Positions 1,617 to 60,111 of a DNA stretch of 64,000 nt are shown here, in pieces. The position numbers were made by a program, and so were the translations under genes. The notes beneath the pieces are model-generated. The model was not told the DNA's origin and did no database searches. It saw nothing but the letters and a program-made list of their open reading frames with translations. The stretch is from positions 24,536 to 88,535 of the forward strand of contig CAYPLB010000005.1 of NCBI GenBank assembly GCA_964411565.1, written 5' to 3'. The stretch is from Candidatus Woesearchaeota archaeon (GTDB taxonomy: Archaea; Nanobdellota; Nanobdellia; SCGC-AAA011-G17; GW2011-AR17). Every line of letters begins with the position of its first letter. The stretch's first letter is position 1.

Positions 1617-2627
1617 ATGGTCTATATCCATGTTAAAAAAATTGGAAATAAGGAGTATTATACACTAAGGATGTCTGTTAGAAAGGACAATAAAGTAATA
1701 ACTAAAGATCTATGTAACCTTGGTTCTGACATCTCAAAGATAAGTATTGAAAGTTTAGAAAAGGAATACAAGAATGAAATAAGAAAATCTTACAAAACAA
1801 TAAAGAGGTTTTTAGAAAAGAATGTATATTTAGAAAAAGTAAAGAAATTAAAACCCAAGTCCTCCAAATATTTCAATAAAGAACAATTATTAAGCATATC
1901 AGCAATTAAATTACATTACAGTAAAAAGTTTTTAAAATTAGATAAATTAACAAAAAGAGACTTTTATGAAGGTTTTCTAATAAATTTTGCAGTTAATTCT
2001 ACATCAATAGAAGGGAACACAATTCCTTTGAAAGAAGCAAATAAGCTACTAACTGAAAATATTTTACCTAAAAATAGAACTATGAATGAAGTGTATGATT
2101 TATTAAATACAAAAACGGCCTTTAACTTTCTCCTAGAAAAAAAACCAAAACTGACTCTGGAATTAATAGAAGAAATTCATGGTATCTTACTTGATAAAAT
2201 TGATAGTAGAAAAGGCTTTAGAAACCATGATATTAGAATTTTTGGACAACCTTTTAAACCTAGTCCAGCAAGATATGTTAAAGCTGATTTAAAATTATTA
2301 TTAACTTGGTATGAAAAAAATGAAAAAAAGATTCACCCATTAGCATTAGCTACCTTTTTTCACCATAAGTTTGAGAAAATACACCCTTTTTCTGATGGCA
2401 ATGGTAGGACTGGAAGAATGTTAATGTGCTATATTCTTTTTTCATTAGAATATCCACCAATAGTTATCTCTAGAAGATTTAGAAAAAAATATTTAGATTC
2501 TATGAATAAAGCTGATAAGGCATTGGAAAAAAGTTTAACAAGTTTAGAAATAGATAATTATAAAAATTTGCTTAATTTTATTTATTTAGAATATAAGAAT
2601 TCTTATTGGGATCATTTTCTAGTCTGA
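1617..2627 (+). CDS. Fic family protein (paralog 1)
   Basis: Fic motif HPFSDGNGRTGR; N-terminus MVYIHVKK... is paralogous to the Fic gene at 4001. Confidence 0.8.
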   Translation: MVYIHVKKIGNKEYYTLRMSVRKDNKVITKDLCNLGSDISKISIESLEKEYKNEIRKSYKTIKRFLEKNVYLEKVKKLKPKSSKYFNKEQLLSISAIKLHYSKKFLKLDKLTKRDFYEGFLINFAVNSTSIEGNTIPLKEANKLLTENILPKNRTMNEVYDLLNTKTAFNFLLEKKPKLTLELIEEIHGILLDKIDSRKGFRNHDIRIFGQPFKPSPARYVKADLKLLLTWYEKNEKKIHPLALATFFHHKFEKIHPFSDGNGRTGRMLMCYILFSLEYPPIVISRRFRKKYLDSMNKADKALEKSLTSLEIDNYKNLLNFIYLEYKNSYWDHFLV

Positions 2628-2727
2628 GCAGAATAACTTAAATACCAATAAGACATATTATATTTAGCTTAATGGCATTACTCATATCTAAGTTTGAGCA
2701 ATGCATATGCAATGCATTCGGAGAGCC
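2606..2727. repeat. Intergenic repeat module R1, copy A (~121 bp; includes the last ~20 bp of the Fic CDS)
   Basis: Near-identical to 4988-5108 (2-3 mismatches); contains palindromes TGCATATGCA and AATGCATT. Confidence 0.8.
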
Positions 2728-2793
2728 TCAACAGAGACCTGCTACCTGGCGGGGGCATTATACTTCTTCTTTAGGTGACCACAAAATCTTAAA

Positions 2794-2839
2794 ATGTAGT
2801 CACCTCTAACCAAAAAGTTTAAATATGTAGTCACCTCTA
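2794..2839. promoter_or_regulatory. Two direct repeats ATGTAGTCACCTCTA (31 bp apart) plus inverted AGGTGAC/GTCACCT, just upstream of the Fic paralog 2 start
   Basis: Perfect 15-bp direct repeat at 2794-2808 and 2825-2839, ending 9 bp before the ATG at 2848. Confidence 0.3.
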
Positions 2840-2847
2840 TTATAACT

Positions 2848-3783
2848 ATGCATATTGAAAAAAGAAAAGAAAAAAATAAAATCAAATACTATTTATCTCA
2901 TTCTTATAGAGAAGGAAAAAAGGTTCATAAATTTAGGAAATATTTGGGTTTAGATTTAAAACAATCAAAACTAAAAGAAAGAAAAGAAATTGCTGAAAAA
3001 CTAATTCTAGAAGAAATTCATAAATATAACATCATAAAAGATCCTTTAGAGTTCGAACTTTCAGAAGAACAGATAAAAGAAATAGAAAAAATAGAAGCAA
3101 AAATACCTTTAAAAGTTAAACACCTTTCAAAAAAAGATTGGGAACTATTCTCTGAAATATTTACTTACAACACAAATGCTATTGAAGGTAGTCAATTGAA
3201 TCTTAAAGAAGTTAAAAATATTCTTGAAGAAGACAAATGGCCTGATAAATCTAAAGAAGACATTGCTGAAACTTATGGTGTCGAAGAGGCCTTAACTTAT
3301 ATTAGGGGAACTAAAGAACATATAAACCTAGATTTAATTAAGAAGATTCATAAAATTGTTTTTAAAAATTCAAAGAGTTTTGCTGGAAAACTAAGAAAAA
3401 AAGGGGAAGATGTTGTAGTTAAAGATAGTAAAGGAAATATTGTTCATGAGGGTGCACCTCAAGAAAGAATCAATCACTTATTAAAAGAATTAATTAATTG
3501 GTATAACAAAAATAAGAATAGATATCCTGCATTAGTTCTTGGAGCTGTTGTTCATAACCAATTTGAGAATATTCATCCATTTGGAGATGGGAATGGGAGA
3601 GTTGGAAGAATCTTATTAAATAATATTTTTTTAAAACAAGGATTACCACCAATTAATATTGATTTCAAAAATAAAGCTGAATATTATAGTTCTTTAAAGG
3701 CTTATGAAAATAAAGATCTGAAGCCTACTATTAAGCTTTTTATTAAGGAGTATAGTATTCTTAAGAAAAAATTGAAGAAGTAG
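2848..3783 (+). CDS. Fic family protein (paralog 2)
   Basis: Fic motif HPFGDGNGRVGR. Confidence 0.8.
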   Translation: MHIEKRKEKNKIKYYLSHSYREGKKVHKFRKYLGLDLKQSKLKERKEIAEKLILEEIHKYNIIKDPLEFELSEEQIKEIEKIEAKIPLKVKHLSKKDWELFSEIFTYNTNAIEGSQLNLKEVKNILEEDKWPDKSKEDIAETYGVEEALTYIRGTKEHINLDLIKKIHKIVFKNSKSFAGKLRKKGEDVVVKDSKGNIVHEGAPQERINHLLKELINWYNKNKNRYPALVLGAVVHNQFENIHPFGDGNGRVGRILLNNIFLKQGLPPINIDFKNKAEYYSSLKAYENKDLKPTIKLFIKEYSILKKKLKK

Positions 3784-3852
3784 AAAAGTACTTAAAGCTC
3801 GTCGACAACTACTATTTAAAGTTAGGGAATACCTAGATTTTCGGAGACTGTT
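3783..3852. repeat. Intergenic repeat module R2, copy A (~70 bp)
   Basis: Matches 5774-5843 with one mismatch. Confidence 0.8.
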
Positions 3853-3885
3853 CGTTGAAGGCTCACGACCGGCGGGGGCATTCTT

Positions 3886-3968
3886 ACCCTTTAATTATTG
3901 AGTTTATCTATTACAGGGTAAACTATTCTATTACCCTTCCTGAAAAGTTTTCAAAAAATAAAGGGTAA
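3886..3968. promoter_or_regulatory. Four alternating-orientation copies of the heptamer AGGGTAA/TTACCCT upstream of Fic paralog 3
   Basis: TTACCCT, AGGGTAA, TTACCCT, AGGGTAA lie within ~80 bp, ending ~35 bp before the ATG at 4001. Confidence 0.3.
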
Positions 3969-4000
3969 AATTTATAAATAGCAACTTCTTCTAAATATAT

Positions 4001-5008
4001 ATGGTATATATCTACAAAAAAGTCATCTCAGGCAAAGCCTACTACTACCTGAGAATGTCCCAAAAAACAAAAAGAAGAACTGTAACAAAAGATATTGCCT
4101 ATTTAGGAAATGATCCTTCAAAAATTGAAAAAAAATTAGATTCCCTACCTAAAATATATCAAAAAGATATTAGAAAATCTCATAGAAATATAAAAAAATT
4201 TATCACCTCAGAATATTTGGTTAAAAAAGTAAAAAAACAAAAGTTAAAAGAGATTAAACTTCTAAAAAAAGAATTACACGAAGAAGTTGAAGCAATTAGA
4301 TTACACTATAAAGATCATTTTCTTAAAGAAGATGAATTAAGTAAGGAAGAAATATACAAACACTTCTTAATCGATTTTGCTTACAATACAACTTCACTTG
4401 AAGGAAATACTATCACATTAAAAGAAACTGAAAAATTATTACAAGAAGAACTCACACCAAAGAATAGAACTTTGAGAGAAATATATGACTTACAAAATAC
4501 AGAGGCAGTTTTCTTTGAATTATTAAGTAAGAAAGAACCCATAAATGATAAATTAATAATTTGGATGCATGACGAATTAGTAAAAAATATCGATAAAAGA
4601 ATAGGATATAGGTTAGGAGATATAAGAGTTTTTAGATCGAGATTTAATGCTTCACCAGGGAAATATGTTAAGGTTGATATGAAAATACTGTTAGATTGGT
4701 ACAAGAAAAATAAGAAAAAATTACATCCAATTGTTTTAGCTAGTGTGTTTCATCAAAAGTTCGAAAAAATTCATCCTTTTTATGATGGCAATGGAAGAAC
4801 TGGAAGAATATTAATGAATTATATGTTAATGTTAGAAGGATATCCACCTCTTGCAATAAGTAAAAAAAACAGAACTGAATATTTAGATTGTTTAGCTGAA
4901 GCGAATGATGTTAATATTGATGATATAGATGAAAGAAAGTATAAAAAATTAGTTGAGTTTGTTTCTAAAGAAATGATAAGTAAATATTGGAATCATTTTC
5001 TAGTCTGA
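4001..5008 (+). CDS. Fic family protein (paralog 3)
   Basis: Fic motif HPFYDGNGRTGR; N-terminus and C-terminus (WNHFLV) match paralog 1. Confidence 0.8.
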   Translation: MVYIYKKVISGKAYYYLRMSQKTKRRTVTKDIAYLGNDPSKIEKKLDSLPKIYQKDIRKSHRNIKKFITSEYLVKKVKKQKLKEIKLLKKELHEEVEAIRLHYKDHFLKEDELSKEEIYKHFLIDFAYNTTSLEGNTITLKETEKLLQEELTPKNRTLREIYDLQNTEAVFFELLSKKEPINDKLIIWMHDELVKNIDKRIGYRLGDIRVFRSRFNASPGKYVKVDMKILLDWYKKNKKKLHPIVLASVFHQKFEKIHPFYDGNGRTGRILMNYMLMLEGYPPLAISKKNRTEYLDCLAEANDVNIDDIDERKYKKLVEFVSKEMISKYWNHFLV

Positions 5009-14185: not shown

Positions 14186-14534
14186 ACATTTTAAAGAACC
14201 AAAAAATGCAGGAGAAATGCAAAATCCTGATGGTGTTGGTGAAGAAGGAGGTTTCAAGTGTGGTGATGCGATGAAGATTTTCATTAAAGTAAAGGATAAT
14301 ATAATCACAGAAATTAAATTCTTAACATATGGATGTATTGCAGCAATAGCTTCAACAGACATACTTTGTGAAATGGCAAAAGATAAAACATTAGAAGAAG
14401 CAGAAAATATTTCAGCTAAAGAGATTGCAGAAGAATTAGGAAAACTTCCAGATATAAAATTCCATTGTTCAATTATGGGACAAAAAGCATTAAAAAGAGC
14501 TATAGAAGATTACAAAAATAAAAATGATAACTAA
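14163..14534 (+). CDS. iscU: Fe-S cluster scaffold IscU/NifU
   Basis: MYSEKTIKHFKEPKNAG...GCGDAMK, LTYGC and HCS motifs with three conserved Cys. Confidence 0.85.
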   Translation: MYSEKTIKHFKEPKNAGEMQNPDGVGEEGGFKCGDAMKIFIKVKDNIITEIKFLTYGCIAAIASTDILCEMAKDKTLEEAENISAKEIAEELGKLPDIKFHCSIMGQKALKRAIEDYKNKNDN

Positions 14535-15606
14535 AGAAGTAAAAGAATTAATGGAAAAACAGCAATACAGAATTGTTGGCTCACATAGTGCTGTAAAAGT
14601 TTGTGGCTGGGCTAAAAAAATGATTCGTGGTGAAGGAGGCTGTTATAAATTAAAGTTCTATGGTATTCGAAGCAACCAATGTTTACAAATGTCTACTAGT
14701 TTAAGTTGTGCAAACAGGTGTATTTTTTGTTGGAGAGATTACAAAGCTCCTGTATCAAAAGAATGGATTGGAGAAATTAATGATCCTCAAGAAATTATCG
14801 ATGGTGCAAAAGAAGCACAAAAAGAATTACTTTCAGGATTTGGCGGACATCCAAGTACAATTAAAGAATTAAAAGATGAATCAAAAACAGTAAAACATGT
14901 AGCTCTTTCATTAACTGGAGAAGCAATTAATTATCCCAAAATAAATGAGATCATAGAATTATTCCACAAAGAAAAAATTTCAACTTTCTTAGTTACTAAT
15001 GGTCAATATCCAGAAGAAATAAAAAATTTGCCAAGAATAACTCAATTATATATCAGCTTAGATGCACCAAACAAAGAAATTTTAAAAAAAGTTAGTCAAC
15101 CTTTATTTACAGATCATTGGGAGAGATTAAACAAAAGTTTAGAATATCTTTCACAGAAAAAAGAAAGAACTTGTTTAAGATTTACTTTAATGCGAGAGAT
15201 CAATATGTGTGACTTAGAAGGTTACTCTAAATTAATCAAAAAAGGAGATCCAGACTTCTTAGAAATAAAATCATACATGTTTGTAGGATCCTCTCGTCAA
15301 AGATTAGATTTAAAAAATATGCCTTTCCACGAGGACATGGTAAATTTTTCAAAAGCTTTAGTAAAATACCTTCCAGATTATGAAATTGTAGCAGAACATA
15401 TTCCTTCAAGAATTGTTTTACTTGCTAAAAAGAAATACAAACAAGATGGAAAATGGCATACATGGATTGATTTTGATAAATTTTTCAACAAAGAAGAAGA
15501 TTATTCTAGAGAAACACCTGACACAGGTATTAGTGGCAAAGGAACAAAAGATAGAATGAAAGTTGATGAAAAGACTGATGAGCTTGAATTCTGGCAAGAA
15601 GATTAA
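14524..15606 (+). CDS. taw1: Radical SAM tRNA 4-demethylwyosine synthase (TYW1/Taw1)
   Basis: Radical-SAM CANRCIFCW motif, with an upstream Cys cluster and a VKVCGWAKK region typical of the TYW1 family. Confidence 0.7.
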   Translation: MITKEVKELMEKQQYRIVGSHSAVKVCGWAKKMIRGEGGCYKLKFYGIRSNQCLQMSTSLSCANRCIFCWRDYKAPVSKEWIGEINDPQEIIDGAKEAQKELLSGFGGHPSTIKELKDESKTVKHVALSLTGEAINYPKINEIIELFHKEKISTFLVTNGQYPEEIKNLPRITQLYISLDAPNKEILKKVSQPLFTDHWERLNKSLEYLSQKKERTCLRFTLMREINMCDLEGYSKLIKKGDPDFLEIKSYMFVGSSRQRLDLKNMPFHEDMVNFSKALVKYLPDYEIVAEHIPSRIVLLAKKKYKQDGKWHTWIDFDKFFNKEEDYSRETPDTGISGKGTKDRMKVDEKTDELEFWQED

Positions 15607-24140: not shown

Positions 24141-24734
24141 CTAACCATTAAAATCTTTTAAACTCTTTTGTTGCTTTTTTCTTCCTACTAAAGAGGCAAT
24201 TACTTCAAAATCTTTCTTCATTTCCTCTAACATTACAGGATTCCTTCCAGAATATAAAAAAGAAGCAGGATGTATCACAGGAACTACAGATCTTCCATTT
24301 AAATCAAATATTTTTCCTTTTATAGACTTTATTCCAGTTTTCTTAATAATTCTTTCAGTTGCAAAATTGCCTATTGTAACAATAACATCTGGATCCATTA
24401 CAGAAATTAATCTATCTAATCTATTTCTACAGTTCTCAACTTCTTCTTTCTTAGGATTTCTATTATTCTCAGGTCTACACAAAATTGTATTTGTAATAAA
24501 AATATCTTCTCTATCAAAACCAATATGGGATAATAATTGATTCAAAATCTGTCCAGACATCCCACAGAACGGAATTCCTTGCTTATCTTCATTTGCTCCT
24601 GGTGCTTCTCCAATAAATAAAATCTTAGCTTTCTTATTTCCTGAACCAAAAACCACTTGATTTCTACTATTAACTAAATCTCCACACTTCTCACATTTAG
24701 AATATTCACATTTTAATTCATCAAACATAAACAT
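24141..24734 (-). CDS. udg: Uracil-DNA glycosylase, family 4
   Basis: GEAPGANEDKQGIPFCGMSGQIL motif, with an N-terminal Cys pair for the Fe-S cluster. Confidence 0.75.
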   Translation of the reverse strand: MFMFDELKCEYSKCEKCGDLVNSRNQVVFGSGNKKAKILFIGEAPGANEDKQGIPFCGMSGQILNQLLSHIGFDREDIFITNTILCRPENNRNPKKEEVENCRNRLDRLISVMDPDVIVTIGNFATERIIKKTGIKSIKGKIFDLNGRSVVPVIHPASFLYSGRNPVMLEEMKKDFEVIASLVGRKKQQKSLKDFNG

Positions 24735-33531: not shown

Positions 33532-35037
33532 TTAATCCCAAAAGATTAACTTATCCCAAAAACTTTCTTCTTCTGGAGCATAACTAACTCCTGAACCTGA
33601 AACAGCACCACAATCTATTCCTGGAGCCCAATCACCAGAAAACTGACAATCTTCCATAGTGTAATCAGAATCACTTGTACTAAAACAAGCAAAGCCACCA
33701 CTATACTCACCTTCCTTCCAATTACTTAACATTTGAACAAGATAATCTATCTCAAAGCTACAATAATAATATGTACCTTCAAGTTCATCTAATTCTGCAT
33801 TTGAAAGGTCTTCAGCTTCTCTAATATCATCCTCACTTATTCCACTATCAATTAATTCTTGGATAAATTCCTCAGAAAAAGTTACTTCAAGACTATCACT
33901 TCTTGAATACAATCTACAAAGATCATCTGCTTCTTCTAACCAAATTGTTCCTGTTCCAGAGTTAATTGCTCCAGCAAATTCAAGTGTTTTAGTTTGTTCA
34001 AAACTTTTTTCATTACAGGTCTCAGCTGCATCAATAAAACAATCCCAATCTTCACATTCTGTACTTTCACTAATATCAGTACTTTCATCACAAAGAATTC
34101 TAATCATAATTGAATCTTCATCAAACCACTGAACATCAATATTAATTCCCTGAAATTCTTGATTATAATCTTCATTAATCTTCCCAGAATATCCATCTAC
34201 ATCAATCATAGCTAAACTAGAGTCATCAGGATCAAAGTTATAAAATGTTAAAGTTTTTCCTTCATACTCTAAAGAATCTCCTTCTAAAAAATGTAAATTT
34301 AAATCATTATCACATTCTACACAAGGAAAAGTTATATCTATTTCATTATTATCAATATCAAAATTTGCATCTATTCTTACTCCACCAAAAACACCTTGAT
34401 AATCATCTTCTATTTTAGCATTATAATCATCAACTCTTAGAGAAGCTAAATTATTTTCATAATTATAAAATGTCAGAATTTCTCCATAAATTTCAACAGA
34501 TTCAGCCTCAAATAAACTTACAACCTCATCACCACATTCACTTATTGTAGATATTATATCAAATTCCTCAGTCTCTTCCTCTTCACTTTCTTCTTCTACT
34601 TCTTCCTCAGTCTCTTCCTCTTCGATTTCATCTTCTACTTCTTCCTCAATCTCTTCCTCTTCGATTTCTTCTTCTACCTCTTCTTCAATAGATTCTTCTA
34701 CTTCTTCCTCAATCTCTTCCTCTTCTACTTCAATCTCTACAATTTCACAAACATTATTTACACATACAGGATCACTTGTAAATTCTACAGTTGATTCAAT
34801 ACAAACAACCTCATCTTCACATTCCCCTAAAGAATTATAATATTCTCGAAAATCAGAATTGATCACAACAATATCATTCCAATCTGTAAAAGGACAACAA
34901 GAATTGTCTACATAATCACAATCTTCATCAAATTCACACATTTGCATTTCTTCCATTGAATAAGGAATATCTTCTGTCTGACAACCTACTAATAATATAG
35001 AAATTATTATTAAAATTAATATTTTACCTCTTTTCAT
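33532..35037 (-). CDS. Lipoprotein with extended Glu-rich repeat region
   Basis: Lipobox LLVGC, many Cys, and (E/I/V)EEE repeats with DNA-level tandem repetition around 34540-34720. Confidence 0.55.
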   Translation of the reverse strand: MKRGKILILIIISILLVGCQTEDIPYSMEEMQMCEFDEDCDYVDNSCCPFTDWNDIVVINSDFREYYNSLGECEDEVVCIESTVEFTSDPVCVNNVCEIVEIEVEEEEIEEEVEESIEEEVEEEIEEEEIEEEVEDEIEEEETEEEVEEESEEEETEEFDIISTISECGDEVVSLFEAESVEIYGEILTFYNYENNLASLRVDDYNAKIEDDYQGVFGGVRIDANFDIDNNEIDITFPCVECDNDLNLHFLEGDSLEYEGKTLTFYNFDPDDSSLAMIDVDGYSGKINEDYNQEFQGINIDVQWFDEDSIMIRILCDESTDISESTECEDWDCFIDAAETCNEKSFEQTKTLEFAGAINSGTGTIWLEEADDLCRLYSRSDSLEVTFSEEFIQELIDSGISEDDIREAEDLSNAELDELEGTYYYCSFEIDYLVQMLSNWKEGEYSGGFACFSTSDSDYTMEDCQFSGDWAPGIDCGAVSGSGVSYAPEEESFWDKLIFWD

Positions 35038-35071
35038 AAAAATAATAAAAGTAAAAAGAATTTAAAAAACT

Positions 35072-36721
35072 TTATCTTCTTCCATATTGAGATCTATTTC
35101 CAAATCCACTAGATTTTTTATTAGATCTTCCACTAAAATTTGATCTTCCACTATTGCTTCTTGACCTATTTCCACTATTACTAAATCTTCCTTTAGGTCT
35201 ATTTCTAAATCCTTCACCAGAGTTTGAATTTCTGTTTCCGAATCCATTAGATCTATTATTATCTCTATTTCCATAGTTTGAATTTCTGTTTCCGAATCCA
35301 TTAGATCTATTACTATCCCTATTTCCATAGTTTGAATTTCTATTTCCAAATCCATTAGATCTATTATTATCTCTATTTCCAAAATTTGAATTTCTATTTC
35401 CACTATTACTAAATCTTCCTTTTGGTCTATTTCTAAATCCTTCACCAGAGTTTGAATTTCTGTTTCCAAATCCATTTGATCTTCCACTAAATCCTCTATT
35501 TCCAAAACCTCTTGCATTAGATCTTCCTCTACTTCCAAATCCAGAACTTCTTCCTCTTGATCTTCCACCGCCAGATCTTCTTCCATCATATCTCTGACCA
35601 GCATCAAACTGTACTTTAGGGAAACTTTCTAAATCTAATCTTTCAATCTTGATTCTATACCTTCTCTTAATTTCTCCAAAAGCATCATGATCTCTTCTAC
35701 TCAATAATGAAATAGCTTTTCCATATTCACCAGCCCTAGCAGTTCTTCCAATCCTATGAATATATTCTTCAGGATTTCTAGGCAAATCATAATTAAAAAC
35801 ATGACTAACATTTTTAATATCTAAACCTCTAGCTGCTACAGCAGATGCAACTAAAACTTCTTGCCTTCCATTATTAAAAGCTTCAATAACTTTCATTCTT
35901 CTATTTTGAGTTAAATCTCCATGGATCATATCTGCATCAATACCTTGTCTTCTCAAATTCTTAGTCAAAACATTTACAGTAGCTTTTGTTGAACAGAAAA
36001 TAATAACTCTATTTGTTTGTTCTTTACTTAACAAATGCATAAGATATGAAAATTTCTCATTTTGATTAATATCATAGTAAAATTGTTCTAACAAGTCTTC
36101 ATGAACTTGAGATTCTGCTTTTACAGTAACAGGTTTATTCATATGTCTTTGTTTGATATATTTAACTTCATTTGAAATTGTTGCTCCAAATAACAAAATT
36201 TGTCTATCTCTATTTGTACATTCTAAAATTCTATTAATATCATCAATAAAACCCATATCTACCATTTTATCTGCTTCATCAAGAACAAAGGTTTTCAATT
36301 TATTTAATTTTAAAGTACCTCTACCTAAGTGATCCAAAATTCTTCCTGGTGTACCAACTACAATTTCTGACCTAGCAATTTTATCCATTTGAGGTCCTAT
36401 AGCTACACCACCAAAAACAGTTGCAATTGAAAAATTAACATATTTTCCAAATTTACTCATTTCTTTTGAAATCTGAGAAGCTAATTCTCTTGTAGGAGCC
36501 ATAACTAAAACTTGTACTCCTTGCTTTTTAACAACATTCTCTAAAACAGGTACTCCAAATGCTAATGTTTTACCTGATCCAGTCTTTGAAATACCAATTA
36601 AATCTTTTCCTTCTTTTATTGTTGGTATAGATTTTTCTTGAATACCAGTTGGTTCTTTTATGTCTATTTCATCTAAAGCCCTTACTATATTAGGACTTAT
36701 ATTTAGTTCGCTAAATTTCAT
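35072..36721 (-). CDS. DEAD-box ATP-dependent RNA helicase with repetitive Gly/Arg/Asn-rich C-terminal tail
   Basis: Motifs GSGKTLAF, PTRELA, DEAD and HRIGRTARAG; C-terminal GFGNRNSN(Y/S)GNRD(N/S)NRSN repeats. Confidence 0.85.
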   Translation of the reverse strand: MKFSELNISPNIVRALDEIDIKEPTGIQEKSIPTIKEGKDLIGISKTGSGKTLAFGVPVLENVVKKQGVQVLVMAPTRELASQISKEMSKFGKYVNFSIATVFGGVAIGPQMDKIARSEIVVGTPGRILDHLGRGTLKLNKLKTFVLDEADKMVDMGFIDDINRILECTNRDRQILLFGATISNEVKYIKQRHMNKPVTVKAESQVHEDLLEQFYYDINQNEKFSYLMHLLSKEQTNRVIIFCSTKATVNVLTKNLRRQGIDADMIHGDLTQNRRMKVIEAFNNGRQEVLVASAVAARGLDIKNVSHVFNYDLPRNPEEYIHRIGRTARAGEYGKAISLLSRRDHDAFGEIKRRYRIKIERLDLESFPKVQFDAGQRYDGRRSGGGRSRGRSSGFGSRGRSNARGFGNRGFSGRSNGFGNRNSNSGEGFRNRPKGRFSNSGNRNSNFGNRDNNRSNGFGNRNSNYGNRDSNRSNGFGNRNSNYGNRDNNRSNGFGNRNSNSGEGFRNRPKGRFSNSGNRSRSNSGRSNFSGRSNKKSSGFGNRSQYGRR

Positions 36722-37333: not shown

Positions 37334-37390
37334 CTTAATTCCAGTTTTCTATGCTTAATTTATATTCTTTATGTATTTAGAAAATAAAAA

Positions 37391-37540
37391 TGGGACCGCA
37401 GGGATTCGAACCCTGGACACCTAGATATCTGAGAACAGTTCAAATAAACAAATTCATTTGATCTTCAGTTTCACTATGCTATTTTAAGCAAACTAGTGCT
37501 CTCCCAGACTGAGCTACGGTTTAATGCTCTTTTAAGACCC
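37391..37540 (-). tRNA. Intron-containing tRNA (anticodon unresolved); a ~60-nt intron in the anticodon region and a probable second small intron after acceptor nt 3
   Basis: Minus strand reads ACCG-TA-GCTC-AGTCTGGGA-GAGC ... GTGTC-CAGGG-TTCGAAT-CCCTG-CGGTCCC-A. The 5' acceptor strand continues only as ACCG. The GGG needed to pair with the 3' CCC lies 17 nt upstream (GGG|tcttaaaagagcattaa|ACCG). Confidence 0.55.
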
Positions 37541-37580
37541 ATCCCGCATCAGCCTATTTATTAAAAATAAAAGTTTCTAT

Positions 37581-38331
37581 TTAAAAGTTTCGTATATGAG
37601 AATTATATAAATCTATCTTATTATAATTTGAAAAACCAATTTCTTTAAACCATTTATTTACCATCTTTTCACCATAAACTGCAATTCTATATGCATCAAA
37701 ATATTTCTTTCTTGGTTCTCTTCTATAAGAAACTCTAAATCCAAAAGACAATAAAACTGTTTTAATTTGTTTTGATAAAACTTCACTAGTTGTTGTTATT
37801 TCTATACAAGGATAAGATAAATTATTACCTTTTTTAGCATAAAATAAAGATCCATCTGTATCAACAATTCCTCTTAAACAAGCAATTAGTAATTTTTTAT
37901 TAGCGAGCGTAGCGAGTCTTTGGGTTTAATACCTCGACCTTTAGGTCGTTTTGTTTTATTGCGCTAGCCTAACTTGATAGGATACCCCATCCCTTTAGGG
38001 TGGGGAGGATGTCATTTTTTAGAATTTTTTCAGGGATTTTAATTCTAGCATGTTTACCTTTGCCATGCTCAAGATTAATATTATTTATTAAATATAACAC
38101 TGCATCTTTTGAATAAAATTTTAATCTTAAACCTCTTTCCCTTATACTTAGTGAAGGATTTTTATTAAAACAAATACTTATTAAATTTGACAAATGATTG
38201 TAATATCTTTTTTCACAATGAGGATTTCCAACAATCTCAATAGAATAATGATTATTTTTACAATAAATACAACCATCACCAATAATAACACCTATTATTT
38301 CTGCCATAGATTCATTCAAAATATACCCCAT
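37581..38331 (-). pseudogene. Two-domain LAGLIDADG homing endonuclease gene interrupted by an in-frame stop, a frame change and a ~70-bp GC-rich insertion
   Basis: The N-domain ORF (38331-37969) has LAGLIDADG motif 1 (IIGVIIGDGCIY). The C-domain continues in another frame (about 37905-37581) with motif 2 (LLIACLRGIVDTDGSL). The intervening 37905-37975 is GC-rich, with a CGACCT-tt-AGGTCG hairpin and a CGAGCG-TAGCGAG repeat. Confidence 0.6.
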
Positions 38332-45078: not shown

Positions 45079-45152
45079 GGCACCGTAGTTTAGTCTGGTA
45101 GAACCCCAGTCTCATGAGCTGGTGATCCCCGGTTCAAATCCGGGCGGTGCCA
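45079..45152 (+). tRNA. tRNA with CAT anticodon (elongator Met or Ile2)
   Basis: GGCACCG/CGGTGCC acceptor, CCAGT-CTCATGA-GCTGG anticodon arm, CCCGG-TTCAAAT-CCGGG T-arm, discriminator A, no encoded CCA. Confidence 0.85.
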
Positions 45153-52595: not shown

Positions 52596-53138
52596 TCAAG
52601 GCCTAGTCCAAGCAATAGAATAATAAGTACAATCACCTTCATCATCTACTATAGCAATTAATAATCTTTTCCTTGTTGAATGTGCTACTCTATTTTTTGC
52701 TGCAAACTCATGCCAGCTACAAGAATCTGCTTCAGAAATAGGATACATAATCCATTTTGCATGATCTTCTCCAGGTTTAACACCTCTATCATAAACTCTA
52801 AAATCTGCACCAAATTTCAAAGCTGTCTTAACAATATAACCTCTATTCCGCATATCCTTATAACCCATATATTTAATCCAAAAATTTTTATTTTTCTTTC
52901 TTGCAAATTTTAAAAAAGTATCATAATCTAATTCTTTTTTACCTTTCATAATCTTCATTTTTTTTCTTTCTAAGAGATAAAGTGCTTCAACTTGAGAATA
53001 TTGATATTTTTTCTTTAGAGGTTCACCATATCTATTTTTATCATAAAACTCTCTAGCAATATCTGAATTTTCAGCAATAACTTGTCCTTCAACATATTCA
53101 GCTACAATAATTTCATCATTTTTACTAGACATAAGCAT
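52596..53138 (-). CDS. endA: tRNA-splicing endonuclease
   Basis: Catalytic C-terminal YKDMRNRGYIVKTALKFGADFRVYDRG...HAKWIM. Confidence 0.75.
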   Translation of the reverse strand: MLMSSKNDEIIVAEYVEGQVIAENSDIAREFYDKNRYGEPLKKKYQYSQVEALYLLERKKMKIMKGKKELDYDTFLKFARKKNKNFWIKYMGYKDMRNRGYIVKTALKFGADFRVYDRGVKPGEDHAKWIMYPISEADSCSWHEFAAKNRVAHSTRKRLLIAIVDDEGDCTYYSIAWTRP

Positions 53139-53184: not shown

Positions 53185-54075
53185 ATGGAAATTACAATAT
53201 TAGGAACTAGTTCAATGGTACCAACAAAAGATAGGAATCATTCAGCTACATTTCTATCCTACAAAAGTGAAAAAATCTTAATAGACTGCGGAGAAGGAAC
53301 TCAAAGACAAATTAGAAAAGCAAAATTGAGCCCTGTAAAGATCACAAAAATATTAATTACTCATTGGCATGGTGACCATGTTTTAGGATTACCAGGTTTA
53401 ATGCTAACATTAGGACATTCAGGATATAATAAGACATTAGATATTTATGGTCCAGTTGGAACAAAAAAATTTATGTCTTACATTTACAAATTCTTTGACA
53501 CTAGATTTAAAATTGATTACAAAGTTCACGAAGTAAAAAGTGGAACCTTTTTTGAAAATGATGATTTTAAACTTGAATCCAAAGAATTAGATCATGGAGA
53601 AATTTGTTTAGCCTATTCATTCATTGAAAAAGATAAAAGAAAAATTGATAAAAAATATTTAGAAAAAAATAAGATAAAAACAAATCCTAAATTGAAATTA
53701 TTGAAAGAAGGTAAAAATATAGTTTACAAAGATAAAAAAATTCTAGCATCAAAAGCAACATTTATAGTTCCAGGTAAAAAAATAACTTTTGTAGCAGATA
53801 CAAAAGCTTGTAAAAATGCAATAAAAATTGCAAAAAAATCAGATTTATTATTTTGTGAATCAACTTTCTTAACAGAATTACAAGAAAAAGCAAAAGAAAC
53901 TAGTCATTTAACTGTAAAGGATGCAACAGATATAGCAAAAAAATCAAAATCAAAAAAATTAATTTTAACACATTTTTCTCAAAGGTATAAAGATCTTAAA
54001 GTAATAGAAAAAGAGGCAAAAAAATACTTCAAAAATACTGAAATTGCTGAAGACTTCAAAAAAATTAAACTTTAA
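53185..54075 (+). CDS. rnz: Ribonuclease Z (tRNase Z)
   Basis: Metallo-beta-lactamase motif ITHWHGDHVLG and overall length. Confidence 0.8.
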   Translation: MEITILGTSSMVPTKDRNHSATFLSYKSEKILIDCGEGTQRQIRKAKLSPVKITKILITHWHGDHVLGLPGLMLTLGHSGYNKTLDIYGPVGTKKFMSYIYKFFDTRFKIDYKVHEVKSGTFFENDDFKLESKELDHGEICLAYSFIEKDKRKIDKKYLEKNKIKTNPKLKLLKEGKNIVYKDKKILASKATFIVPGKKITFVADTKACKNAIKIAKKSDLLFCESTFLTELQEKAKETSHLTVKDATDIAKKSKSKKLILTHFSQRYKDLKVIEKEAKKYFKNTEIAEDFKKIKL

Positions 54076-54929
54076 TTTTTATATCTATCAAAAAGAATAA
54101 AAGTTCCCCAAATCTCTGCAACTAAATTTAATAGTACTCCAAATAAACTTATTAATATTAAGGTAACCAAAACAAAAATAGTATTTGAACTTAATCCTTG
54201 AATTAAACTAAGAATATAGTTTACTATTCCCGTAAAAATCCAAATTACAATACTTAATAATATAATAAACAACCAAGTAACAAAAACATATACTGGATCT
54301 TTTCTAAAATAATTAATTGATTTTAACAAGGCAGACCAAGCCTTTATTTTTTTGGATAAAAATAAAACAGGATATCTAAATAATATTCCTAATTTCAAAA
54401 CAAATATTGATAATAAAATTAAAATTACTGAAATTAATAATGTTAAGAACTTAGCCAATTCAACATTAAACTGACTCACTATAAAATATACTAATCCACT
54501 GACAAGAGTTATAAAAATTACAATAACTAAACTTAAAAAAAACACAAAAAGTTTCATTAATACTATTTGCCAGAAATTTTTATGACTTACCTTATAAGAT
54601 TTTATCAATGATGCTTTTTTACCTCTGATTACATTTTTTATCATTTCAAATTTTAAAGCAAGTACACTAACCCCAAAGAAAAAAGTAGTTACTACAAAAA
54701 CAACAACAGAAGTTAAAATACTAACAACATTATCTGAAAAATATTCTTTTAATATTTCTAATGATCCACCTCCACTTTGCATTAGACTAAAAATTTCACC
54801 AATCCCTGTATAAGCATTTATAACATAAAGCAAAAGATAAGTAAATGCTATGAATGCTAAATCAGGAACAAAAACAATTAAATTTTTTGTCCATTGGTTA
54901 AAACTTTTCTTAAAAACATCAACATTCAT
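54072..54929 (-). CDS. Polytopic membrane protein, hypothetical
   Basis: Six or more TM helices. Confidence 0.5.
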   Translation of the reverse strand: MNVDVFKKSFNQWTKNLIVFVPDLAFIAFTYLLLYVINAYTGIGEIFSLMQSGGGSLEILKEYFSDNVVSILTSVVVFVVTTFFFGVSVLALKFEMIKNVIRGKKASLIKSYKVSHKNFWQIVLMKLFVFFLSLVIVIFITLVSGLVYFIVSQFNVELAKFLTLLISVILILLSIFVLKLGILFRYPVLFLSKKIKAWSALLKSINYFRKDPVYVFVTWLFIILLSIVIWIFTGIVNYILSLIQGLSSNTIFVLVTLILISLFGVLLNLVAEIWGTFILFDRYKN

Positions 54930-55237: not shown

Positions 55238-56233
55238 TTATTCTACACTTATTTTGTTCCCTTCAACTAAAAATTTTACATCCAAGAATTTTTCAATAAC
55301 TTCTATATTTCTTTTAACATGATTTGTAAATTCAGGGACTATATAAGAACCTCCAGCTATAGCAATATAAGGTAACAACATATCTCCTGTATGTACATCT
55401 ACAGTACCATTTTCATAAGATTTTATCAAAGATCTAGCAGCCTCTTCCCCTACTAATTCAGCTCTTTTACCTCTTTCACCAACACAATCTCCTCCAAAAA
55501 AACTATTTTCAGTTTCAATTGTAATTTGTATTCCTGAACCAACACATAAAGCATCAGCATATTTCACCTTTACATCAACGGGTAAAGAAAATTTTTCTTC
55601 TAAGATTTTCTTAGCAGCATCTGCTTGCCTATCTGCAACCTTAGGGCTTTCTAATTGGCGACTTGCAACAGAAACAATTTCAATGTTCTTTATAGGTCCC
55701 TTTTCTAAAAGATCTAATCTCTTCAAATCAGCTTTTTTTGAATTTACCTCAACTCTTGCACCACCTTTTGGAAAAAAACCATGATGATCAACTTTTGAAC
55801 TTACTTCATATCCCATTTTTTTCAACAAAGGAAATAAAACATTATCAAAATAATAAATTGGAGGAGCAAATAATCCAAAAGTTGCACCTCCCTTTACTCT
55901 TATTAACAAATCTGTTTTTATTGTTGGTATCAATAAAGATTGTAATAACAAACCTATAGAACCTGCTGTATTAATCTCAACTTCCAATTCTCCACTTTTT
56001 ATTGTTTCAGGTTTAAACACAATTTTTTCAGAACCTAATTCTGCACCTGCAACTTCACCTTCACATAACTCTAAAGCTGCTAAAACTCCTTTCAAGTGTT
56101 GCTCTTTCAAACCTTTTTGTGGCCTTATTGCTCTAATATTATCCATAGAAAAATCTTTTCCTATTAATACAGATAATCCTAAAGCAGATCTAAGAATTTG
56201 TCCTCCACCTTCACTTCCATCAATTTCTATCAT
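55238..56233 (-). CDS. rtcA: RNA 3'-terminal phosphate cyclase
   Basis: N-terminal IDGSEGGGQILRSALGLSVL. Confidence 0.8.
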   Translation of the reverse strand: MIEIDGSEGGGQILRSALGLSVLIGKDFSMDNIRAIRPQKGLKEQHLKGVLAALELCEGEVAGAELGSEKIVFKPETIKSGELEVEINTAGSIGLLLQSLLIPTIKTDLLIRVKGGATFGLFAPPIYYFDNVLFPLLKKMGYEVSSKVDHHGFFPKGGARVEVNSKKADLKRLDLLEKGPIKNIEIVSVASRQLESPKVADRQADAAKKILEEKFSLPVDVKVKYADALCVGSGIQITIETENSFFGGDCVGERGKRAELVGEEAARSLIKSYENGTVDVHTGDMLLPYIAIAGGSYIVPEFTNHVKRNIEVIEKFLDVKFLVEGNKISVE

Positions 56234-59661: not shown

Positions 59662-59898
59662 AATTCAAAAAAGAAATTCCTTATTATTAAAGATTACTAA
59701 CTTTTTTCTCTAATTTCTTCAAATCTTGCAATCATTCTTCAAACTATTAATTTAAGTAAATAAACCCAAAAAACAAAACATTTATAAACTCCTATTTTTT
59801 TCGTGGAGTACATGGACAGATTCTTCTATGCTACATGGAAAAATGTAAATTTATTCATTCAGTTATTCAAATTAACTCATAGAAGATATTATGTCAAT

Positions 59899-59973
59899 GC
59901 CCTGATAGTGTAGTCCGGTCTATCATGAAGCCCTGTCGAGGCTTCGACCCGGGTTCGAATCCCGGTCAGGGCG
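59899..59973 (+). tRNA. tRNA-Asp (GTC)
   Basis: GCCCTGA/TCAGGGC acceptor, AAGCC-CTGTCGA-GGCTT anticodon arm, CCGGG-TTCGAAT-CCCGG T-arm, discriminator G. Confidence 0.85.
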
Positions 59974-59976
59974 TAC

Positions 59977-60111
59977 GGACCGGTAGCTCAGTTTGGTGGA
60001 GCACCTGGGGAGGGGAGTGAAGACAAATCATTATCATGAACCTCTTGGTGAAACTTTTACCAAGCTTTGGAAGATATCAGGTGGTCGCGGGTTCAAATCC
60101 CGTCCGGTCCA
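59977..60111 (+). tRNA. Intron-containing tRNA (anticodon unresolved), 3 nt downstream of tRNA-Asp
   Basis: GGACCGG/CCGGTCC acceptor, GCTC...GAGC D-arm, GCGGG-TTCAAAT-CCCGT T-arm; about 65 nt inserted between the anticodon-stem halves (CCTGG ... TCAGG) with an internal CTTGG/CCAAG hairpin. Confidence 0.6.

Follow-up and report, generated by a model that had tools for sequence, protein, structure and literature searches.

A tRNA-Phe(GAA) gene with three predicted bulge-helix-bulge introns in a low-G+C DPANN archaeon

We analysed a 64,000-nt stretch of contig CAYPLB010000005.1 (assembly GCA_964411565.1, Candidatus Woesearchaeota archaeon, positions 24,536 to 88,535 of the forward strand), hereafter called the window, and conclude that positions 37540-37391 on its minus strand are very probably a functional tRNA-Phe(GAA) gene carrying three introns of the bulge-helix-bulge (BHB) type. 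Judged from the sequence, the introns lie at positions 3/4, 30/31 and 37/38 of the mature tRNA and would be removed by the tRNA-splicing endonuclease EndA in a low-G+C archaeon of the DPANN superphylum. The pre-tRNA gene is 150 nt long and consists of four exons (3, 28, 7 and 36 nt, in this order) separated by introns of 17, 23 and 36 nt; the CCA end is not encoded. Since the four exons are collinear and lie on one strand within 150 nt, the gene is neither split nor permuted. As far as its predicted structure goes, the locus is a multi-intron BHB-spliced tRNA gene by definition.

Read as RNA, the minus strand contains a GGG triplet, 17 further nucleotides, the segment ACCG-UA-GCUC-AGUCUGGGA-GAGC-A-CUAG, a long insert and the segment AUCUAG-GUGUC-CAGGG-UUCGAAU-CCCUG-CGGUCCC-A, followed by a run of T residues. 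The D arm (GCTC/AGTCTGGGA/GAGC in the DNA, downstream of the ACCG at 37520-37517), the T arm (CAGGG-TTCGAAT-CCCTG), the 3' acceptor strand (CGGTCCC) and the discriminator A at 37391 are canonical, as a preliminary description of this DNA had stated. The GGG constitutes exon 1 (37540-37538), which supplies nucleotides 1-3 of the tRNA and pairs with C70-C72. It is separated by intron 1 (37537-37521, 17 nt, tcttaaaagagcattaa, position 3/4) from exon 2 (37520-37493, 28 nt), which spans nucleotides 4-30 and includes the remainder of the 5' acceptor strand, the D arm and the CUAG of the anticodon stem. The D stem and the variable loop lie 77 nt apart (the preliminary description had about 78), as compared to 18 nt in a normal tRNA, and the excess of 59 nt equals the sum of a 23-nt and a 36-nt intron. 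The large insert in the anticodon region is indeed not one ordinary 37/38 intron, as had been suspected; however, it is not a single intron of another kind either. It resolves into intron 2 (37492-37470, 23 nt, position 30/31) and intron 3 (37462-37427, 36 nt, at the canonical position 37/38), placed on either side of a 7-nt micro-exon, ACUGAAG (exon 3, 37469-37463), that provides nucleotides 31-37: A31, C32, U33, the anticodon GAA and G37. Exon 4 (37426-37391, 36 nt) covers nucleotides 38-73 and comprises A38, the 3' half of the anticodon stem, the variable loop GUGUC, the T arm, the 3' acceptor strand and A73.

Joining the four exons produces a 74-nt sequence, GGGACCGUAGCUCAGUCUGGGAGAGCACUAGACUGAAGAUCUAGGUGUCCAGGGUUCGAAUCCCUGCGGUCCCA, which the program ARAGORN recognizes over its entire length (1-74) as tRNA-Phe(gaa). 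All seven base pairs of the acceptor stem are formed, the anticodon arm reads CUAGA / CUGAAGA / UCUAG and includes the A31-U39 pair, and G18-G19-G20, C32, U33, GAA, G37, A38 and A73 are all in place. In yeast, E. coli and human systems, tRNA-Phe identity is specified by a GAA anticodon in a class I body together with G20 and A73. The spliced sequence has each of these features, the isotype call itself being that of ARAGORN. The GCU anticodon considered in the preliminary description must thus be abandoned in favour of GAA, with C32, U33, G37 and A38 around it.

Cleavage at BHB motifs occurs after the second nucleotide of the bulge, a register with which every 30/31 intron in the comparative set described below agrees. 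The motifs were therefore scored with the splice site after nucleotide 2 of a 3-nt bulge and with the two bulges 4 bp apart. This 3-4-3 geometry corresponds to the strict hBHBh' motif (PMC3239211), in which an outer helix (h) and an inner helix (h'), here required to be at least 2 bp long, flank the central helix (H) and its bulges. At the junctions dictated by the mature tRNA, each of the three introns has a central helix with four pairs out of four and 3-nt bulges, and all six predicted cleavage sites fall after the second bulge nucleotide with the bulges 4 bp apart. Intron 1 has the strict motif, intron 2 a nearly strict one and intron 3 a relaxed one.

The motif of intron 1 is built largely from the 5' leader. 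Its central helix pairs G37543-A-U-G37540, that is, leader positions -3 to -1 plus G1, with the intron sequence CAUU and is flanked by the bulges GG|U and AA|A. An inner helix of 3 bp (CUU/GAG) closes an AAAA loop, while the outer helix has 5 bp and joins the leader sequence UGCGG (37548-37544) to C5-C6-G7-U8-A9 (CCGUA). Hence three of the four nucleotides in the 5' strand of the central helix and one side of the entire outer helix come from the leader (UAGGCUGAUGCGGGAU, 37541-37556, minus strand). The short intron after nucleotide 3 that had been proposed from the GGG lying 17 nt before ACCG is borne out by these pairings (central helix 4/4, h of 5 bp, h' of 3 bp), and the same arrangement is found in two related loci (see below). 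An alternative acceptor strand made of GGGA (37545-37542) and CCG, which would place the intron at position 4/5, was tried and rejected, as only one of the four central helix pairs can form. In intron 2, the central helix pairs C25-A26-C27-U28 with AGUG and is bordered by the bulges AG|U and AA|A; the outer helix is limited to 2 bp (A23-G24 with C32-U33), and the inner helix comprises 4 bp (UGCU/AGCA) set off by one U.U mismatch. In intron 3, the central helix joins C32-U33-G34-A35 to UCAG, next to a 3' bulge of AU|A. The motif is relaxed on its 5' side, where the bulge AG|A abuts a 9-bp hairpin and seven unpaired nucleotides (ACUGUUC) lie opposite. The 5-bp anticodon stem serves as the outer helix of intron 3 but is unable to form until intron 2 has been removed.

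Bare BHB cores with a 4-bp central helix occur by the hundreds as chance matches in a scan of 220 nt. The presence of such a core is therefore no evidence in itself, and the significance of the pairings was evaluated at the forced junctions instead. Each intron was shuffled 20,000 times, keeping the exons unchanged and the junctions as imposed by the mature tRNA. A perfect 4-bp central helix was obtained in fractions of 0.026, 0.004 and 0.016 of the shuffles for introns 1, 2 and 3, respectively. The product of these values is 1.7e-6, and no shuffle yielded all three helices.

Comparative evidence was sought in two collections. Used as an exact 23-mer, the last 23 nt of the gene gave one relevant archaeal match in the genome collection, to a metagenome-assembled genome (MAG) from the Black Sea entitled "MAG: Nanoarchaeota archaeon isolate BS150m-G60" (locus L005); the other four matches were to Opitutia, Gemmataceae and Planctomycetaceae contigs. 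A search of the metagenome collection with exon 2 yielded 54 related tRNA-Phe loci. The three-intron architecture is identical in the window, in L005 and in the metagenome contig L059, and exon 2 is invariant among them. In a three-way alignment, the differences map to leader position -12 (A/T), to the hairpin loop of intron 1, to the loop of intron 2 (plus one extra base, an indel, beside its central helix) and, in intron 3, to one loop base and a G.U-to-A-U change within the hairpin. Exon 4 varies at the variable-loop positions 44/45 and at position 71, where a C to U change preserves pairing with G2 as G.U. The leader block UAGGCUG(A/U)UGCGGGAU is kept in the three loci while the sequence farther upstream diverges, a pattern that fits a leader constrained by the BHB of intron 1. 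The exact 3/4 intron was found only in the window's own population (L001), in L005 and in L059.

The D arm and the anticodon stem are also shared by the more distant loci, likewise tRNA-Phe genes, in which every intron state is represented. In about two dozen of them, CACUAG-ACUGAAG-AUCUAG is uninterrupted, so that the exon-exon junctions predicted here are found contiguous. Intronless genes are among them, and L047 even has an identical acceptor stem, with the 5' strand uninterrupted: GGGACCG...CGGUCCCA. The 30/31 intron occurs alone in L037 and L039, the 37/38 intron alone in 11 distinct forms and both together in 14. In each of the 16 distinct 30/31 introns, CACU pairs with (A/G)GUG in the central helix; across the set, all five pairs of the inner helix have changed on both sides. 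Pairing is present in 88.6% of cells, compared to 30-40% when the partner strand is slid by 1-3 columns, and none of 500 shuffles reached the observed score. The central helix of the 37/38 intron is complete (4/4) in 14 of 25 distinct introns and has three of four pairs in the remaining 11.

Several relatives carry introns at other sites. An intron in the 5' acceptor strand, one position later (4/5), is present in L017, L018/L019, L026/L050, L040, L051, L058 and L063; it is of the HBh' type, without an outer helix. Variable-loop introns at 46/47 (GUG|...CCU(G/A/U)AA|UC) recur in L010, L017, L032, L037, L046 and L062, and T-loop introns at 59/60 (UUCAAA|...UGAAAG|U) in L017, L024, L032, L033, L035, L055, L060 and others; BHB pairing was checked for a few of these 46/47 and 59/60 introns. 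L017 (contig Ga0233437_1000044) combines four introns in a single tRNA-Phe gene, at 4/5, 37/38, 46/47 and 59/60 (minus strand, around 1200-1500 of the locus). Its 74-nt spliced product is called tRNA-Phe(gaa) by ARAGORN, and the gene went undetected by Rfam even at E <= 1. According to reviews from 2011 and 2014, archaeal tRNAs contain at most three introns, and no report of a four-intron archaeal tRNA was found in the literature searched. The 37/38 introns of L017, L018, L024, L032, L040, L055, L058, L062 and others share the conserved blocks CCAGACUGRC and GAUCUGAUGAGGC...GCCRAUGAUUAUCAGAG, which resemble k-turn or C/D-box elements and are absent from intron 3 of the window. A comparison of the conserved UGAUGA-containing motifs of these introns with Rfam gave no match at E <= 1.

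The gene largely escapes standard tRNA finders. The Rfam tRNA model matches 37395-37520 on the minus strand with 31.9 bits, the gathering score being 29; the alignment is restricted to model positions 4-67 and has 63 nucleotides inserted in the anticodon loop. In default mode, the only tRNA genes that ARAGORN calls in the window are tRNA-Met (45079-45152) and tRNA-Asp (59898-59974), and the present one is missed. In its intron mode (-i), the program returns a tRNA-Leu(CAG) at 37524-37390 with a 57-nt intron.

The endonuclease expected to process such a transcript is encoded in the same window. The gene at 52596-53138 (minus strand) specifies a 180-residue EndA of the catalytic type (Pfam tRNA_int_endo, 4.1e-29; tRNA_int_endo_N, 7.4e-13), whose best relatives of solved structure are the Nanoarchaeum equitans catalytic subunit NEQ205 (3iey_A, 4.9e-34) and Methanocaldococcus jannaschii EndA (1a79_A, 3.9e-31). 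Residues around the expected catalytic positions, presumably the Tyr, His and Lys of the catalytic triad, are conserved with respect to the M. jannaschii enzyme. In pairwise alignments, the protein is collinear with that enzyme, which is of the alpha4 type (1a79). It lacks the 11-residue insertion in the N-terminal domain of Sulfolobus tokodaii EndA (2cv8_A) known as the Crenarchaea-specific loop (L1/CSL), as well as the 6-residue and 5-residue insertions found beside the catalytic His in NEQ205 (3iey_A) and in ARMAN-2 EndA (4fz2_A), respectively. Such insertions have been linked to broad substrate specificity (PMC3239211, PMC5829648). A second EndA subunit may be encoded elsewhere in the genome.

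A number of observations weigh against the existence of a functional gene spliced by EndA at three BHB motifs. Intron 3 has no strict BHB: its 5' bulge faces the seven unpaired nucleotides, and A36 and G37 are base-paired in the minimum-energy fold. Intron 2 has the U.U mismatch right beside its 5' bulge and can adopt another register, with A29 paired to a U. More generally, each BHB conformer has a negative free energy but is less stable than its local minimum-energy fold, by 2.6-4 kcal/mol. The EndA of the window is devoid of the L1/CSL and L3 insertions that the literature ties to cleavage of relaxed motifs (PMC5829648), and a gene for the RtcB ligase was not found among the larger open reading frames (ORFs) of the window that were scanned.

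These points must be set against what the rival explanations would entail. The locus could be a decaying tRNA pseudogene in which junk insertions fortuitously offer BHB-like pairings. Such a view would accommodate the failure of ARAGORN in default mode and an Rfam score just over threshold, and the LAGLIDADG gene upstream is itself a pseudogene in the window's population. Yet the mature cloverleaf is perfect, and the exons are nearly invariant in three lineages whose flanking sequences have diverged, with changes confined to intron loops or preserving pairing. Moreover, three perfect central helices have a joint chance probability of about 2e-6, and introns at the same positions covary in relatives. 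Altogether, these data make decay quite improbable. Also to be considered is that some introns of a genuine gene are removed by a route other than EndA and BHB recognition, for example by self-splicing or in a guide-dependent manner. The relaxed 5' side of intron 3 and an EndA devoid of the known broad-specificity loops could be taken in its favour. However, lengths of 17-36 nt are far too short for group I or group II ribozymes; no ribozyme match above gathering score was obtained with Rfam, and self-splicing introns of either group can thus be set aside. With all six sites placed after the second nucleotide of 3-nt bulges 4 bp apart, we regard a route of this kind as scarcely credible.

The number of introns was questioned in the same way. 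The Rfam alignment, with its single 63-nt insert in the anticodon loop, would suit a gene with only two introns, one at 3/4 and one large non-canonical intron in the anticodon region. However, no single excision generates a loop of 7 nt that has both U33 and a purine as nucleotide 37, and the candidate junctions for a single intron have incomplete central helices and hardly any flanking helices. In contrast, ACUGAAG has an independent BHB motif on either side and is fused to one or both neighbouring exons in many relatives. Very little credence can be given to the two-intron model as a result. Finally, a single-intron tRNA beginning at a different 5' end, an alternative raised in the preliminary description, is proposed by ARAGORN in intron mode in the form of the tRNA-Leu(CAG) mentioned above. 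Its over-long acceptor stem contains three mismatches (U.C, A.C and A.C) and its anticodon stem a U.U; a leucine anticodon would be carried by a class I body, and the intron, within the anticodon region, has no BHB. We discount this candidate virtually altogether and retain a tRNA-Phe(GAA) gene with introns at 3/4, 30/31 and 37/38 as the reading of the locus.

From the anatomy of the sequence, which constitutes the direct evidence, we infer a maturation pathway for the three-intron transcript. Transcription would start about 15 nt upstream of G1 and end at the T-rich run TTTTTATTTT (37381-37390, minus strand), which directly follows A73 and is a likely terminator. A TATA-like element, CTTTTAAATA, is present at 37578-37587 (minus strand), where it overlaps the stop codon of the upstream LAGLIDADG pseudogene, and a similar element is found in L005. 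If this is the promoter, its position would have transcription begin close to the 5' end of the conserved leader. The strict hBHBh' motif would then arise by pairing of the leader with nucleotides 5-9 and the 3' end of intron 1, and EndA (52596-53138) would cut after nucleotide 2 of each 3-nt bulge. Excision of intron 1 is expected to precede trimming of the 5' leader because its BHB depends on the leader; otherwise, the 3-nt exon would be set free and lost. Intron 2 would form its own BHB using C25-U28, and its removal would allow the anticodon stem to form and to serve as the outer helix for the BHB of intron 3. Excision at 30/31 thus probably precedes excision at 37/38, both because intron 3 gains an outer helix only after intron 2 has been excised and because C32 and U33 are claimed both by the outer helix of intron 2 and by the central helix of intron 3, which compete for them. 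The exons would be joined by an RtcB-type ligase, and the ends completed by RNase P (or an equivalent activity), tRNase Z and a CCA-adding enzyme. G37 may receive a wyosine-type modification from Taw1.

Members of the Taw1/TYW1 family act on G37 of tRNA-Phe, and a radical-SAM wyosine-formation enzyme of this type is encoded at 14524-15606 (plus strand; Pfam Wyosine_form, 1.1e-23; Radical_SAM, 3.4e-16). Other RNA-processing genes cluster with that for EndA between 52596 and 56233. A tRNase Z-like metallo-beta-lactamase gene (53185-54075, plus strand; Lactamase_B_2, 2.4e-17; Lactamase_B_4, the tRNase Z family, 6.5e-8), whose product would act in 3' end processing, adjoins the EndA gene. An unannotated ORF of 285 codons (54072-54929, minus strand) separates it from the gene for the RNA 3'-terminal phosphate cyclase RtcA (55238-56233, minus strand; RTC, 3.4e-63; RTC_insert, 8.9e-20). 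The window has a G+C content of about 28%, and its archaeal-looking genes include, in addition to EndA, an Rpb2-type RNA polymerase subunit split in two genes and a candidate glycyl-tRNA synthetase with class II core and HGTP anticodon-binding domains.

A second multi-intron tRNA gene was noticed in the window. The segment 59977-60111 (plus strand), which begins 2 nt after the tRNA-Asp gene, hides a tRNA-Lys(UUU) gene with two BHB introns placed around a 7-nt micro-exon, ACUUUUA. The introns map to 30/31 (60008-60052, 45 nt, ending in GGUGAA) and 37/38 (60060-60075, 16 nt), the same two positions as in the anticodon arm of the tRNA-Phe gene. ARAGORN calls the 74-nt spliced product tRNA-Lys(ttt), while the gene is missed by the program in default mode and by Rfam at gathering score.

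The gene immediately upstream of the tRNA-Phe gene (37585-38331, minus strand) encodes a two-motif LAGLIDADG homing endonuclease and is broken by a 115-nt insertion of higher G+C content (approximately 38017-37903). This insertion does not offer a BHB in any register, and the window contains it only once. The counterpart of the gene in L005 is an intact ORF of about 211 codons (Pfam LAGLIDADG_3, 3e-8), and a different LAGLIDADG-type ORF lies upstream of the tRNA-Phe gene of L059. On the other side of the tRNA gene, a DEAD-box helicase gene (35062-36721, minus strand) specifies a protein whose long C-terminal tail is repetitive and of low complexity, with an abundance of Gly, Arg, Asn and Ser (GFGNRNSN repeats), and the product of the gene that follows (33532-35037) contains long Glu-rich repeats. 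At the beginning of the window, a fragment of an N6 DNA methylase gene (28-885) lies ahead of three consecutive paralogous genes for Fic/DOC-domain proteins within 1617-5008 (plus strand; 1617-2627, 2848-3783 and 4001-5008).

Up to three BHB introns per tRNA gene, including introns within stems, are documented in the Thermoproteales (PMC4033280, PMC4090602, PMC3239211). The gene described here resembles those multi-intron tRNA genes, which were found with SPLITS and SPLITSX, in the number of its introns, in their non-canonical positions, in its very short exons and in the predicted excision by EndA. The likeness to the Thermoproteales drawn in the preliminary description therefore holds for the mechanism; it does not extend to the host. 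Thermoproteales are hyperthermophilic crenarchaea, whereas the organism studied here is a marine DPANN archaeon of about 28% G+C, a close relative of the Black Sea MAG entitled Nanoarchaeota that gave the closest genome match. The enzymes differ as well: Thermoproteales use an (alpha-beta)2 EndA with the Crenarchaea-specific loop, while the EndA of the window aligns collinearly with the alpha4-type enzyme of M. jannaschii and has no such loop. Disrupted tRNA genes are known from the same superphylum, in ARMAN-2 (PMC3239211) and in Pacearchaeota and Woesearchaeota (Kaneta et al. 2018, PMC5829648). These reports associate disruption with an epsilon2 EndA or with an alpha4 EndA bearing L3, unlike the enzyme of the window, in which pairwise alignments reveal no insertion of this kind.

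Intron 3 is similar to the canonical archaeal 37/38 hBHBh' intron in that C32-A35 pairs with its own 3' end, a 3-nt 3' bulge is formed and the anticodon stem acts as the outer helix. It departs from the canonical intron in that this outer helix must await removal of the 30/31 intron and an inner helix contiguous with the 5' bulge is lacking. Several ectopic BHB-type introns per gene are also found in nuclear tRNA genes of the red alga Cyanidioschyzon merolae (PMC3728597, PMC9602550); however, the endonuclease there is the eukaryotic Sen complex, and there is no sign that the introns share ancestry with those studied here.

No description of this particular three-intron tRNA-Phe was found in the literature searched. 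Multi-intron archaeal tRNAs and disrupted tRNA genes in DPANN are already known, and the locus adds another case. The feature that lies outside the usual picture of multi-intron tRNAs, among those tested, is the predicted EndA without a specific-loop insertion. With three introns in tRNA-Phe, two in tRNA-Lys and four in the gene of a related contig, at non-canonical positions and with relaxed BHBs, one could tentatively envisage that a marine DPANN lineage maintains many multi-intron tRNAs with a minimal alpha-type EndA devoid of L1, L2 and L3, a proposal that we consider doubtful at present. If it were correct and no second subunit existed, the model in which the specific loop co-evolved with such introns would need revising. 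Maturation would then rest on solutions at the RNA level, namely a strict BHB built with the leader and an obligatory order of events (30/31 before 37/38, and 3/4 before leader removal). The locus offers a compact test case, with exons as short as 3 and 7 nt, a BHB that depends on the leader and a probably forced splicing order. Since an EndA that looks to be of the strict-specificity type is encoded nearby, what determines the substrate range of EndA can be tested directly with one enzyme and one 165-nt transcript.

The finding also bears on the annotation of DPANN genomes. The tRNA-Phe gene was missed by ARAGORN and barely detected by Rfam, and the tRNA-Lys gene, 22 kb away, was missed by both. 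Therefore, tRNAs that appear to be missing from metagenome-assembled DPANN genomes may often be hidden multi-intron genes and not true losses, with consequences for estimates of completeness and for claims of host dependence. That incomplete tRNA sets in DPANN reflect disrupted genes that went unidentified has been suspected before (Kaneta et al. 2018, PMC5829648). The main value of the locus lies in what it brings to the annotation of these genomes and in the clean substrate-enzyme pair it provides for the study of EndA specificity.

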